From positions 1 to 53,570 of the IMG/VR virus record IMGVR_UViG_3300028840_000680: 53,570 nucleotides of DNA. The stretch is one strand, 5' to 3'. A model generated the notes under the pieces. That model ran no database searches. It worked only from the letters and a program-made list of their open reading frames with translations, and was not told the DNA's origin. This stretch comes from a virus. Lineage: Duplodnaviria > Caudoviricetes. Both the position numbers and the translations under genes were made by a program. Positions 4,626 through 8,057 of the stretch are shown in pieces. Each line of letters opens with the position of its first letter. Within the stretch, counting starts at the first letter, position 1.

Positions 4626-6774
4626 ATCCCAAAAGGCGCAGCTGCTTTTTAATTGATCGAACTGAGAATCCCCAAGTGGGATCATATTGTGGGCGACACA
4701 TATAAGGACGATTCAAGTGGATCCTGTCCTTGCCCTCAACAATACCCCAACAACGGAAGCGTGTCAAGACGGAATTCGAATCAATAACTTCCACAATCCA
4801 ATAAGGCTTTCCTCTTTTTGTTTTCTTGCGAATAATCTCGCGTGGAATAAACCATACAAGTCCCAACTCTGGATCGTAATCTGAAATCGCCGGAATGTAA
4901 TACTCATCCAACTTTTGCCGAACCTCTGGCGTTACGACCAGAGACATAGGGAAAATACCTGTGATTGTTGTTAGATTCTCGATTTCTTCCTCTGGAGTGA
5001 AGTCCCCTTCATCTCTATACTTCTCAATGTTCTCATTGAACTTCTTGCGGTTGTAAACTCTATCTACTGCGACAGCAGACCAGAAATGCTTGCGACCAGT
5101 GAAGCGATCATCCATTAAACTATTCATCGCTCCCGACCGAACTAGCACATCAAGAGCCTTCTTGTTTAGTTTGCTGTAAACAATATCATCGTGGAATAAA
5201 AACTCTTCGATATTCGCAAACGGACGGTTATCAACAATCTGCTGGATTGCTGCGTCACCAAGTCCCTTTAGGCCCGCAAGAGGCTGAATAAGCTTGCGAT
5301 CATCGTTTGGATCAATCTCCCACTCAAACGAAGAACGGTTTACGTCTGCCTTTTCGATAAAGAAGCCATTTGCCTTTGCAATATTGATTGCCTTTTCCTT
5401 TCGCTTCTCGGGCTCCTTGTCCAAGAAAGAAGCCATCCACTCAATCGGGTAATAGTTCCAAAGCCAAGCGCACTGGAAAGAAATCGCGGAATAAGAAATA
5501 GCGTGAGACTTGTTGAAGCCGTATCCGGAGAAATACTCAAATCGCTCCCACATACTTTCTGCTTCGTGCCTACGAATGCCCTTTTCAACACAACCCTCAA
5601 TAAACTTGTCGTGGATTTTCATCTTTACTTCGTGACCCTTGCCGGTTCCCTTCTTGGTAAGAACCTTGCGAAGAAGGTTGCCTTCATCAAGAGATACGTC
5701 CTTACCCAACTTGTGAGCAAGTAAGGCAATCTGCTCCTGAAAGATAAGGAACCCGTAAGTTTCTTGCGTAACTTCCTTGATATGATCATTCATATAATCA
5801 ATACCGTCTGCGTTCTCCTTAGCTTGAATGTATTGCTCGTGAACATTTGCCGATAGAGGCCCGGGACGATAAATGGAAGTAATGGCGGAAATATCAACCA
5901 AAGACTTTGGCTGTGCGTTTGCACAGAATTCCTGTGCTCGCCCCTCGGTAAACTGAAAAATACCGGCGAAGTTTCCTTTCTGGAAAACATTCTTATACAC
6001 TTCCTGATCGTCAAAGTCAATAACGTCCGGGTGAAGATGCTTGTTGTAGAAATCCTGAACATCCTTGAACGTCGGCTCTGGATTATTGTAATGCCGAACA
6101 AGGATGTGACGGATTGCGTCTTCAATCATCCGAAGTGTGGAGAGCCCCAAAAGGTCAAACTTAATAAACCCAAGCGGCTCCAAATGACGAACGTTCTGAC
6201 CTTCTGCCCACGGAGACTGCCGAACACCACCAGAACTAATAATCGGCATATGCTCGTTTAGATCGTCCGCAATCAAAACGCCACCAGCGTGGCGGGAACA
6301 ACTCCTTACCTGACCTACAAGCGCCTCAACGTGCGTTTTGATGTGAGGGTGCTTTACAAGGAAGCCACGAAGAGAAGGAGAAAGTTCCATAACCTCTTCC
6401 CAAGTTGGAGTATAAACACCAGCCTTGATGCCGTGCCTTGCCTTTGCGGCAGGAGTAGCCTCAAAGATCATCTGAGATGTAACTTTATTTACCTCAATGA
6501 AAGGCACACCATAGAACTTTGAAATGTCCTTGATTAGAGACTTCAACTGTAGAGTGTTCCAGTTTGAGATTGGAATAACAGAGTTCTTGCCCCAATCCTC
6601 CATAAGACGCTCTTTTAGTTCCATTGGATTGCTCACATCATAGTCAATATCAGGCATATTGGTATCTTTTGGATTATTTAGAAATATACCCTCCAGCTCC
6701 TTCTTCTGTCCTGCTGGGACTGGGATTAGGTTTCTTTTAGCCACTGGCAAGTGTGTTATGTTAGTGATTTTCAT
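4624..6774 (-). CDS. dnaE: DNA polymerase III alpha, fragment 3 (degenerate IntC-like leader + palm/fingers/OB)
   Basis: MPDIDYD, SRHAGGV, KFDLLGL, IFQF, YRPGP, FQEQ, YGFNKSHA. First 34 aa resemble an intein C-fragment. Confidence 0.95.
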   Translation of the reverse strand: MKITNITHLPVAKRNLIPVPAGQKKELEGIFLNNPKDTNMPDIDYDVSNPMELKERLMEDWGKNSVIPISNWNTLQLKSLIKDISKFYGVPFIEVNKVTSQMIFEATPAAKARHGIKAGVYTPTWEEVMELSPSLRGFLVKHPHIKTHVEALVGQVRSCSRHAGGVLIADDLNEHMPIISSGGVRQSPWAEGQNVRHLEPLGFIKFDLLGLSTLRMIEDAIRHILVRHYNNPEPTFKDVQDFYNKHLHPDVIDFDDQEVYKNVFQKGNFAGIFQFTEGRAQEFCANAQPKSLVDISAITSIYRPGPLSANVHEQYIQAKENADGIDYMNDHIKEVTQETYGFLIFQEQIALLAHKLGKDVSLDEGNLLRKVLTKKGTGKGHEVKMKIHDKFIEGCVEKGIRRHEAESMWERFEYFSGYGFNKSHAISYSAISFQCAWLWNYYPIEWMASFLDKEPEKRKEKAINIAKANGFFIEKADVNRSSFEWEIDPNDDRKLIQPLAGLKGLGDAAIQQIVDNRPFANIEEFLFHDDIVYSKLNKKALDVLVRSGAMNSLMDDRFTGRKHFWSAVAVDRVYNRKKFNENIEKYRDEGDFTPEEEIENLTTITGIFPMSLVVTPEVRQKLDEYYIPAISDYDPELGLVWFIPREIIRKKTKRGKPYWIVEVIDSNSVLTRFRCWGIVEGKDRIHLNRPYMCRPQYDPTWGFSVRSIKKQLRLLG
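6673..6774 (-). other. Degenerate split-intein C-fragment-like segment (IntC2)
   Basis: MKITNITHLP...ELEGIFLNN resembles 'MKI..I.YLG...FANGILVHN' but lacks the penultimate His and is followed by Pro rather than Cys/Ser/Thr. Confidence 0.6.
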
Positions 6775-6902
6775 TTACCATCCTTTGTAATATCTTTCTT
6801 CGTTGGTTCTTTACTGAACTAAATGTGCGATATGGGAATAGTGTCTCATAAATGTTTTGTGTCGTCAAGTTGTTTTCTAACGCCTCAACGAACTTTTGGT
6901 TT

Positions 6903-7088
6903 TTACACGCTCATTATCTCGTCGCCTACCTGTAGGTTTTTGGCGAGGGCATAAAAAACTTTATTATCTCGTTTAACTTTCACTTCCATATCCGGAGTGA
7001 TAGTAATAGTCCTACCGCTATCAGTGTCCAGCTGGATGGCGGCAACCTCTTCCAGTGCTCTTCCATTGTCAGTAATGTAACCAGAGCC
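6903..7088 (-). other. Degenerate split-intein N-fragment-like segment (IntN2)
   Basis: 61 aa after FERFMTKDA: ...[21 protein letters not shown]...[12 protein letters not shown]. Matches intein block B with TPDH>TPDM and has no Cys1. Confidence 0.7.
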
Positions 7089-8057
7089 TGCGTCCTTTGT
7101 CATAAACCTCTCAAAAAGAAGACCATACTTGATAGGGTCAATCTGTGTGATCCCGAGAACATAAGCAACCAAAGAACCAGCAGCGGACCCACGACCGGGG
7201 CCAGTCAACTGAACTTCATTTGCCTTGTCGGAGATCGCTTTCATGGTCAAGAAATACTTGCTGAAACCACGGTCATCAATAACATCCAACTCCATCTTTA
7301 GACGGTCAGTGTATTCTTTGTTCTCGTGGAGCCCACGATTACGCAAACCTTCCAAAGCATAGTTTACAAGTGCCTCTGTAGCAGTATGCCCCGCAGGAAC
7401 CACAAAGTCAGGAAGCTTTACAGTTGTATCAGGAACAAAGTCCTCAATCATCTTGAAAGCAATGTCGTGAGTTCGTGTGATTGAGTCCATTACCAACTGA
7501 TCGTCATACTCTACGCCAGCGGTCTTTGAGTAATACTTGTAGGAATCCCACATTTGGTTTCCATTCTTAGGATAAATCTCATATCCAATCTCTTCAACAC
7601 CAGCCGGAAGATCGGTATTCTCCATCCAATCAGGCTTGCCCTTACCAAGCCAACCAAGGCGCTTGTAAAGCTCTCGGTCCTTCCAAGCGTCCGGATTAGG
7701 ATAATGAGAGTCGGCAGTTGAAATAAGTGGAATACCAAACTCGTGATGCATTTCAATAATGTACTGATTTAGCTCGTGCTGCTCTGGAATATTGTTCCAT
7801 TGAAGCTCGCCGTGCCAACGATCCCCAAAGATCTTCACAAACTCTCTTGTGGTCTCGCGCATTGCCTCTCGGACAGCCTCGGGGCCTTCCTCGCGGTTTG
7901 CCCAGTAGTTGCCGGCATACGGACCACCCAAACAATTATGGACCAACAGTCCGTTGGCAAAAAAATTATGTGTGTCTTCGACTGTTATATCATAAGTGTC
8001 CTCAATCTCTTCTAATTCCTCTATTTCTTCGATCTCTACAAATTTATAATTATTCAT
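6903..8057 (-). CDS. dnaE: DNA polymerase III alpha, fragment 2 (IntC1 + PHP C-part/palm N-part + degenerate IntN2)
   Basis: Starts with IntC ...[24 protein letters not shown]; then [26 protein letters not shown]. Confidence 0.95.
7935..8057 (-). mobile_element. Split intein C-fragment (IntC1, 41 aa)
   Basis: Blocks F/G intact: [17 protein letters not shown] followed by Cys+1. Confidence 0.93.

Follow-up and report, generated by a model that had tools for sequence, protein, structure and literature searches.

A putative splicing-dead split intein across the catalytic loop of a phage DnaE polymerase

The viral record IMGVR_UViG_3300028840_000680, analysed here over its whole length of 53,570 nucleotides (nt) and referred to below as the window, encodes the replicative DNA polymerase DnaE in three separate pieces, which lie on the minus strand like all other genes of the dnaE region. 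Pieces 1 and 2 carry between them the two halves of a canonical split intein. The second break falls between the FERF segment near the end of piece 2 and the PDIDYD motif of piece 3, which we take to hold the two catalytic Asp residues. Beyond FERFMTKDA, piece 2 continues for a further 61 residues (the tail), and piece 3 opens with 34 residues (the leader) before polymerase sequence begins (Table 1). How could a polymerase divided at this point work, and what are the two additional segments? The answer that we consider rather probable is that they are the halves of a mobile split intein that can no longer splice and has lost its endonuclease in this copy, and that they act as non-covalent assembly tails. 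The sequence-only reading that preceded this analysis had described the reading frames and both segments as they are, and its quotation is exact except for four omitted residues (GSGY) at the start of the tail.

The split in dnaE and the origin of its tail and leader

When viral contigs were scanned with piece 2, 595 relatives were confirmed, and the best 80 of them were kept for comparison of the loop. In 78 of these the polymerase is contiguous, without tail or leader, and RF is followed by PDID at a spacing of 8 residues in a single frame (e.g., RFLRKDATDYPDID and RFLTKGGSGYPDID). The same split was found in only two (L019 and L020, one sequence type). Since 78 of the 80 relatives are contiguous and two are split identically, the split is not a chance feature. 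The three closest loci (L001–L003, 95–96% identity) are uninterrupted and lack the element. Within the window, the matches of the two pieces to the DNA_pol3_alpha profile abut, piece 2 covering profile positions 3–97 (8.1e-28) and piece 3 positions 93–260, followed in piece 3 by matches to the finger (2.8e-33) and HHH_6 (5.6e-13) domains. Misassembly, named beforehand as a possible source of such a junction, is countered by a 996 nt contig from another study (run X6) that bridges it, covering 6350–7345 with one difference. A 39,646 nt contig of run X1 covers 6300–7500 with no differences but is a possible source of the window and so not independent, and a contig of run X7, which crosses the deletion point described below by fewer than 31 letters, was not counted as bridging.

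The sequence comparisons place the tail firmly as a relic of an intein N-half. Its closest active-looking relative, at 33% identity, is a canonical split intein in the dnaE gene of locus L097, which differs from the element of the window in its site (about 35 residues upstream, between GRG and SAAG), in having all the canonical residues and a full N-half of 93 residues, and in its endonuclease. In L097, Cys1 follows GRG, block B reads TADH, and the C-half ends in ...AVHN followed by Ser. The tail of the window matches the L097 N-half by BLASTP at 3e-12, and a profile of ten tails matches it by hhalign with a probability of 96% (E 4.1e-09, 40% identity over 45 columns), both sequences ending alike in ...KNLQVGDEI. 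Against the canonical N-half of the window itself (IntN1, 102 residues), the hhalign probability is 44% (E 2.4e-4); the tail aligns to positions 54–78 of IntN1, in keeping with the earlier estimate that about 40 residues are missing. Taken alone, the tail matches positions 49–93 of the 155 in PF14890 (Intein_splicing) at E 0.005, below the family cut-off, and 7 of the 10 members of the tail family match the same family, all below its cut-off (best E 0.006). When family profiles were compared with PDB sequences, the TvoVMA intein came out on top (E 0.003 and 0.002), its His standing opposite the Met, Leu or Val of the tails.

The AlphaFold2 model of the tail alone is all-beta (mean pLDDT 79). 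In a VIA search of 48,161 PDB chains its first three matches are inteins (Z 5.1, 1.7 Å, 47 residues aligned; Z 5.1, 3.1 Å, 55 residues; Z 4.9, 3.1 Å, 64 residues), and inteins or Hedgehog proteins make up 16 of the 50 rows. Foldseek likewise returned inteins at ranks 1–9, at E-values of 0.2–1.5 and none at 0.001 or lower. The structural scores of the model agree with the sequence evidence and are too low to stand alone. A HINT-like nature had been proposed for both segments; the ranking of the tail model agrees with this, at weak scores throughout, and the leader has no profile match. The same number of tails (7 of 10) also match PF24957, the C-terminal domain of DISARM DrmE (positions 5–50 of 181), with a best E-value of 0.0034, similar to that for the intein family; the start of the DrmE domain may be HINT-like or a similar small beta unit.

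The leader is probably the relic of an intein C-half, a weakly supported assignment that leans on its predicted hairpin and on one register match, so that the proposed derivation from a split intein is firm for the tail and weaker for the leader. The leader is 34 residues long, compared with 36–41 for the C-halves of split inteins, and its AlphaFold2 model is a beta hairpin (strands 23–27 and 30–34 joined by a turn at E-G; pLDDT about 80) with N34 as its last residue. Across six leaders, N34 and T38 are invariant, the alternating hydrophobic residues of the leader strand would suit a beta strand, and the terminal Asn is present in all six and a penultimate His in one. That one belongs to L090, a divergent lineage, where the hairpin ...EGVTVHN is in register with the end of the L097 C-half, ...AEGMAVHN (7 of 16 residues identical, E 0.001 in a single comparison).

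Neither tail nor leader contains a Cys. Block B reads TPDM in the window in place of T-x-x-H, and (T/S/N)-P-x-(M/L/V/I/Q) across the ten tails; the Thr or Ser is retained in nine of them and the His in none (M, M, L, V, L, V, L, L, I and Q), with Met found also in L083 and P0004. Between RF and the first strand that is conserved, the ten differ both in length and in sequence and show no conserved column of Cys, Ser or Thr. Relative to the L097 N-half, the tail lacks block A with Cys1 (the first ~23 residues) as well as 10 residues from the interior, the alignment starting at about residue 24 of that N-half or, with gaps, at residue 7. On the C-terminal side, N34 is preceded by N/K/R/R/K/H in the six leaders and followed by Pro in the window, L083 and L020, by Ser in L084, by Thr in L085 and L086, and by Arg in L090; T38, if taken as the +1 residue, is preceded by D/A/E/D/D/E.

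The losses listed in the sequence-only reading (no Cys, TPDM for the block-B motif, Asn before the last Asn) are all found in the window, and the residues and block-A segment required by any described splicing route are absent across the family, in line with its statement that catalysis is lost. Its Pro at +1 holds in part: a Pro does follow N34, and it occupies the +1 position only if N34 is the last intein-derived residue, which is likely though uncertain. We know of no splicing class that works without both the first nucleophile and the N-terminal junction strand. As far as sequence can tell, the pair is splice-incompetent throughout the family and especially in the window copy. Because block A with the first nucleophile, the block-B His, the penultimate His and the +1 nucleophile have been lost, we infer that the two polypeptides of the window are not ligated.

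The element family and its endonuclease

Alignment-based searches found the tail–leader pair also in the metagenome contigs L083–L086 and in the viral contigs L087, L088 and L090, L087 being the same sequence as L085 and L088 the same as L020. An exhaustive profile search over 1.84 billion protein representatives gave seven matches at E ≤ 1e-3, six of which are true protein clusters (P0006 and P0008–P0012); the seventh, a 1,595-residue repeat protein (P0007), was set aside as spurious. A word-indexed search with the tail region returned the window's own protein and P0004, while the same search with the leader region returned no protein beyond the window's own. In every family case, including all six true profile matches, the protein ends with the tail. 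In P0004 and L020 the N-fragment occurs naturally in a pre-joined form of 526–527 residues. Three further loci were excluded from all counts: L098 (3001–3180), L099 and L100 (both 3001–3090) show weak matches to the last 30–60 residues of the tail pattern within large unrelated open reading frames (ORFs), and in L098 the upstream ORF starts with an apparent intein C-end (...LLTHN, then Thr).

Between tail and leader, L083, L084, L085/L087, L086 and L020 carry an ORF of 321–326 codons with two LAGLIDADG motifs (PF14528, 9e-13) and weak Myb-like repeats, its stop overlapping the first codons of piece 3. These loci thus show the layout of a fractured gene, with adjacent ORFs on the same strand, an intein half on each and an endonuclease gene between. 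The five endonucleases are intact and, at 71–85% identity, as conserved as the flanking polymerase (64–78%).

Only the last 46 endonuclease codons of this layout are kept in the window. Its nearest element-bearing relative is L083, with a tail 97% identical and an identical leader. L083 aligns to the window in two parts, 1–410 with 7310–6901 and 1309–1981 with 6903–6231, the two matches sharing 3 nt within runs of A; positions 411–1308 of L083 (~898 bp) are missing from the window by a clean deletion, which the X6 contig described above also spans. What remains is read in the frame of the L083 endonuclease and holds the ribosome-binding site for piece 3 (AGGA, some 8 nt ahead of the ATG), within the 128 nt (6775–6902) that separate pieces 2 and 3. 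A contig of 1,305 nt from run X8, a marine metagenome, has ~894 extra bases exactly at the deletion point and represents the endonuclease-bearing allele, so that alleles with and without the endonuclease are both present in public runs. A joint from 6627 to 7105 in run X8, with 27 letters on its shorter side, gives at most a hint of an empty allele. The same run holds many fragments that are 90–99% alike, pointing to several related phage strains in one sample. In L090, tail and leader lie only ~70 nt apart and there is no endonuclease.

Because the endonuclease is intact in five lineages, the closest relatives are free of the element and several alleles occur in public runs, it looks like a selfish element that fractures genes, and the window appears to hold an endonuclease-deleted copy of it. 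In view of the same three observations, the earlier description of the pair as domesticated lacks support. Conservation of the endonuclease in five lineages, despite lost splicing function, also bears on how such an element completes its homing cycle. A contiguous intein ancestor was not found when the L083 endonuclease was compared with longer proteins by word-indexed search, the sole match being an endonuclease–NAMPT fusion, which is weak evidence of absence.

The insertion site itself has two peculiarities. K-D-(A/T) occurs on both sides of it (7088–7100 and 6655–6672, minus strand), in FERFMTKDA and in PKDTNM-PDID, compared with the native RKDATDY-PDID, and BLASTP aligns a 12-residue stretch at the insertion to residues 7–18, in block A, of the L097 intein. 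These features might stem from duplication of the target or have been left behind by aberrant homing. As a candidate origin we considered ectopic or aberrant homing that fused the host loop to the middle of an intein, which would explain both the missing block A and the repeated K-D-(A/T). In the lineage of P0008, a protein of 129 residues, a canonical intein C-half (...GVHN, then Ser) is followed by ~33 polymerase residues and a degenerate tail; there, the dead element is accompanied by a canonical intein at the site between GRG and S, at a distance of ~33 polymerase residues, and dnaE must consist of at least three pieces.

Selection was estimated pairwise by the Nei–Gojobori method, as rates of non-synonymous (dN) and synonymous (dS) substitution. 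Between the window and L084, the tail gives dN 0.11 and dS 0.83 (ratio 0.13; 8, 6 and 20 differences at the three codon positions) and the leader dN 0.24 and dS 0.81 (ratio 0.29; 7, 7 and 15 differences). The pooled counts of 15, 13 and 35 depart from equal thirds with a chi-square of about 14. Between the window and L083, the tail has one difference of the non-synonymous type and three at third positions, and the leader has no non-synonymous and six synonymous differences. With substitutions concentrated at third codon positions and low dN/dS, tail and leader are translated and under purifying selection, and neutral decay, which had been put forward as a check on the proposal, is refuted. The flanking polymerase (extein) sequence is more constrained (dN/dS 0.03–0.1 where measurable). 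Both segments are present in every lineage found, including the two without endonuclease.

Assembly of the polymerase, known parallels and alternatives

In the mechanism that we propose, the canonical upstream split intein would first join pieces 1 and 2, and the resulting N-fragment would then associate non-covalently with piece 3. Tail and leader would complete each other's beta structure, as the halves of split inteins do, and this completion together with the palm's own interface would place the FERF segment beside the PDIDYD strand. The polymerase would then work as a permanent two-chain enzyme. Prediction of the tail–leader complex gave an ipSAE of 0.54 (0.53–0.55 in three runs), against 0.01 for the best of three controls, with a contact agreement of at least 93% and a partner pLDDT of at least 70, a result graded as weak support. 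Of 80 solved complexes, 58 attain the ipSAE mark applied, as do 2 of 110 mismatched pairs; passes at values of 0.60 or lower include only 7 of the 80 solved complexes and both of the passing mismatches, counts that hold only roughly for a prediction made with custom shallow alignments. The heterodimerisation module of the sequence-only reading gains to this extent; that the two segments bind each other and that the unligated chains form an active enzyme we infer.

Several known systems share parts of this arrangement. Dassa et al. (2009; PMC2677866) described fractured genes, dnaE among them, in which a split intein has a free-standing endonuclease gene between its halves; the loci came from marine and aquatic metagenomes, with phage-like hosts. 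Judged by sequence, the upstream split of the window (first three rows of Table 1) fits this type as an ordinary fractured gene. The downstream element is like it in lying in an essential replication gene, with adjacent ORFs on the same strand, an intein half on each, and an endonuclease between. It is unlike it in that the N-half has only 61 residues, is missing block A and does not show the five catalytic residues that the study uses as a criterion. The endonucleases of that study are of the GIY-YIG or Vsr-like types, LAGLIDADG going unmentioned in its main text, whereas here a LAGLIDADG enzyme with Myb-like repeats is found. The cyanobacterial split DnaE intein, as described in the same paper, is also a natural split of dnaE with intein halves on both products, but it has another insertion point, trans-splices with a full set of catalytic residues, is encoded at separate loci and has no endonuclease.

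Functionally, the nearest known system appears to be NrdA of Aeromonas phage Aeh1, where the tails of NrdA-a and NrdA-b arose by insertion of mobE and are essential for activity (Crona et al. 2011; PMC3045599). There, too, insertion of a free-standing homing endonuclease gene breaks an essential enzyme in two at the active site, the products have extra C- and N-terminal tails that contiguous homologues lack, and no splicing occurs, as none is expected here. The authors suggested that the Aeh1 tails are possible remnants of a degenerate intein, and their account reports no sequence similarity to inteins. The Aeh1 endonuclease is of the HNH type; in the present case the tail is demonstrably homologous to inteins, and the system is known from its sequence alone. 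The concept, which the sequence-only reading did not recognise as described, had therefore already been proposed for Aeh1.

A third parallel is found in group 2.2 jumbo phages, which according to Iyer et al. (2021; PMC7824862) have a minimal Pol III alpha split between the NTP-binding and the Mg/template-binding subdomains. As here, a catalytic module is made as two proteins that presumably reconstitute without ligation. In the jumbo phages, however, the two genes are distant, the description of the module mentions neither intein-like tails nor an endonuclease, and the minimal Pol III alpha exists alongside a family B polymerase. A preprint on inteins of actinophages whose endonucleases are unusually arranged (10.1101/2025.01.02.630785) treats all of them as still splicing. 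No description of the present element was found in a limited search of the literature; Supplementary Table S1 and Figure S1 of Dassa et al. might include a comparable locus. By the sequence evidence, what is new is the proof of intein ancestry for one such tail, a family of at least ten variants all without splicing chemistry, a non-splicing intein that is accompanied by an intact homing endonuclease, and a position across a replicative polymerase's catalytic loop.

A number of points weigh against the assembly proposal. The complex score lies in the weak band, and its pass may reflect a likeness to solved split-intein complexes. No structural match of the tail reaches the level needed to assume a shared fold safely (Z < 8; Foldseek E > 0.001), and the selection estimates rest on 36–59 codons and few pairs, with dS saturated in most. 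In Aeh1, the tails are not needed for formation of the heterodimer (PMC3045599), so the picture of a clamp may be wrong. The record is 29% complete by CheckV, so a second polymerase could be encoded elsewhere in the genome. The remaining points concern the leader. None of the six leaders has a Pfam intein match at E up to 10, and hhalign gives the leader probabilities of only 0.6% and 1.5% against the C-halves of the window and of L097; its only PDB profile matches are cellular DnaE chains (E 0.07–0.4). The pattern N34-x-x-x-T-x-M-PDID aligns to native NPERTSMPDID, and N34 may be a copy of the native DnaE loop and not the last Asn of an intein. The overlap of the Pfam polymerase half-matches, by 5 positions in the window and 10 in the L020 record, fits this alternative. 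We prefer the intein origin of the leader over a copied native loop and keep both in view.

The main rival to the assembly proposal grants the ancestry and denies the role: tail and leader would be leftovers, tolerated or serving folding, solubility or translation coupling, while the pieces associate through the palm interface. The Aeh1 heterodimer and the jumbo-phage module, split near the same boundary and encoded by distant genes (PMC7824862), speak for it, as do a leader without detectable intein signal and the weak complex prediction. We nevertheless hold it to be unlikely, as both segments are under purifying selection and no family member found lacks them, not even where the endonuclease is absent, and the core conserved among the tails corresponds to the portion that pairs with the C-half in inteins.

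More doubtful still is a non-canonical joining or processing reaction, with a Ser or Thr elsewhere as the nucleophile, with T38 as the +1 residue, or with cleavage at N34 releasing the leader. Inteins without Cys1 or the block-B His are known, and such a route would account for the invariance of N34 and T38, for the Ser or Thr that follows N34 in three of six leaders and for the block-B Thr or Ser of nine tails. It is contradicted by the absence of the whole block-A segment of the N-terminal splice junction and of any conserved nucleophile column on the N-side, by the Pro (window) or Arg (L090) after N34, by the residues before T38 (D/A/E/D/D/E), and by the lack of Cys.

That the polymerase gene is dead, as a pseudogene or an assembly artefact, is very improbable. 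The deleted endonuclease gene and an incomplete record that may lack another polymerase would suit such a gene, but its three pieces are open and strongly conserved, with the low extein dN/dS given above, the same arrangement is found again in several divergent lineages, the junction is spanned by an independent contig with one difference, and this dnaE is the only one found in four records. Least credible of all is repair at the level of RNA or translation (a group I or II intron, or ribosomal bypass) that would keep tail and leader out of the mature protein: although a direct fusion of PDIDYD to piece 2 cut after ...GSGY would look much like the unsplit loop in one clade of relatives (FERFLTKGGSGYPDID), no Rfam family was found at E up to 1 in window positions 4500–10000 or in L083–L085, substitutions in tail and leader are biased to third codon positions, piece 3 has its own ATG and ribosome-binding site, and the tail is homologous to an intein half. 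A self-splicing intron was rejected on the missing Rfam match, the coding-type substitutions and the separate start of piece 3.

If the chains do assemble by way of these intein relics, the family would bridge two fields of study, the fractured genes that trans-splice and the genes in pieces that do not, and would show that a host gene can go on functioning with an intein whose catalysis is lost. It would also mean that separate chains can be assembled into a replicative polymerase across its catalytic loop. The pair (~45–60 and 34 residues) would also be a small natural one that associates without ligation and might serve as an orthogonal tag for protein complementation. We give even chances to the more specific proposal that the element is a mobile gene-fracturing cassette, in which a half-HINT tail and an intein-C-like leader flank a LAGLIDADG homing endonuclease gene, and which homes into the active-site loop of the polymerase, never splices, and brings a non-covalent docking module that is kept after loss of the endonuclease. 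Were this the case, homing elements would have a third way, beside RNA and protein splicing, of neutralising their own insertion, and the degenerate-intein origin guessed for Aeh1 NrdA (PMC3045599) would have direct sequence evidence.

Genomic context

The features of the dnaE region are listed in Table 1. At the upstream split, the intein N-half in piece 1 is 102 residues long, starts with CLTGDS and has TPDH as block B. The ORF that follows has a weak Vsr-like/DUF559 match (E 0.055, residues 271–313) and matches phrog_22677 at 6.5e-09. Residues 1–41 of piece 2 are the canonical C-half (...LLVHN, then Cys), with positions 118–155 of Intein_splicing matched at residues 4–41.

Table 1. Features of the split dnaE region, with positions in the window (those of the last row are in locus L097).
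Feature	Position	Strand	Description
dnaE piece 1	9036–9893	minus	285 aa; PHP domain, residues 1–183 (1.3e-28); canonical split-intein N-half, residues 184–285 (Intein_splicing 2.2e-06)
Free-standing endonuclease-like gene	8054–9004	minus	316 aa; between the halves of the canonical upstream intein
dnaE piece 2	6903–8057	minus	384 aa; intein C-half, N-part of DnaE palm to FERFMTKDA, 61-aa tail
Tail	6906–7088	minus	61 aa after FERFMTKDA, then stop; relic of intein N-half
Endonuclease remnant	6761–6901	minus	last 46 codons and stop of LAGLIDADG gene; overlaps start of piece 3
Leader	6673–6774	minus	34 aa, MKITNITHL...ELEGIFLNN, then PKDTNMPDIDYD; probable relic of intein C-half
dnaE piece 3	4624–6774	minus	716 aa; leader, PKDTNM-PDIDYD, rest of palm, fingers, HhH
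Canonical split-intein parts of L097	2932–3210, 3260–4264, 4230–4337		335-aa endonuclease-like ORF between the halves

A search of 6500–7300 found no terminator-like sites and three promoter-like sites, where 1.5 are expected by chance. Among the other gene products of the window are a ribonucleotide reductase, a DnaB-like helicase, a tail sheath protein and a major head protein, and on account of these genes the virus is a large contractile-tailed, myovirus-like phage. Phage records contain no close relatives (DNA matches cover 2% of the query, and protein identity is below 32%), and the runs containing the stretch are labelled as seawater, marine or sediment metagenomes. The RNA runs X15–X20 cover only minor parts of it. 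Directly downstream of piece 3, an ORF of 330 codons (3483–4475, minus strand) matches homing-endonuclease families of PHROG (phrog_3339, 7.1e-17); counting the remnant, it is the third endonuclease gene within 6 kb of dnaE. Farther away, two adjacent ORFs of 105 and 138 codons (11519–11836 and 11841–12257, minus strand) share a near-identical N-terminus of 16 residues (MKLTKARLQQIIKEEI) and diverge after it.

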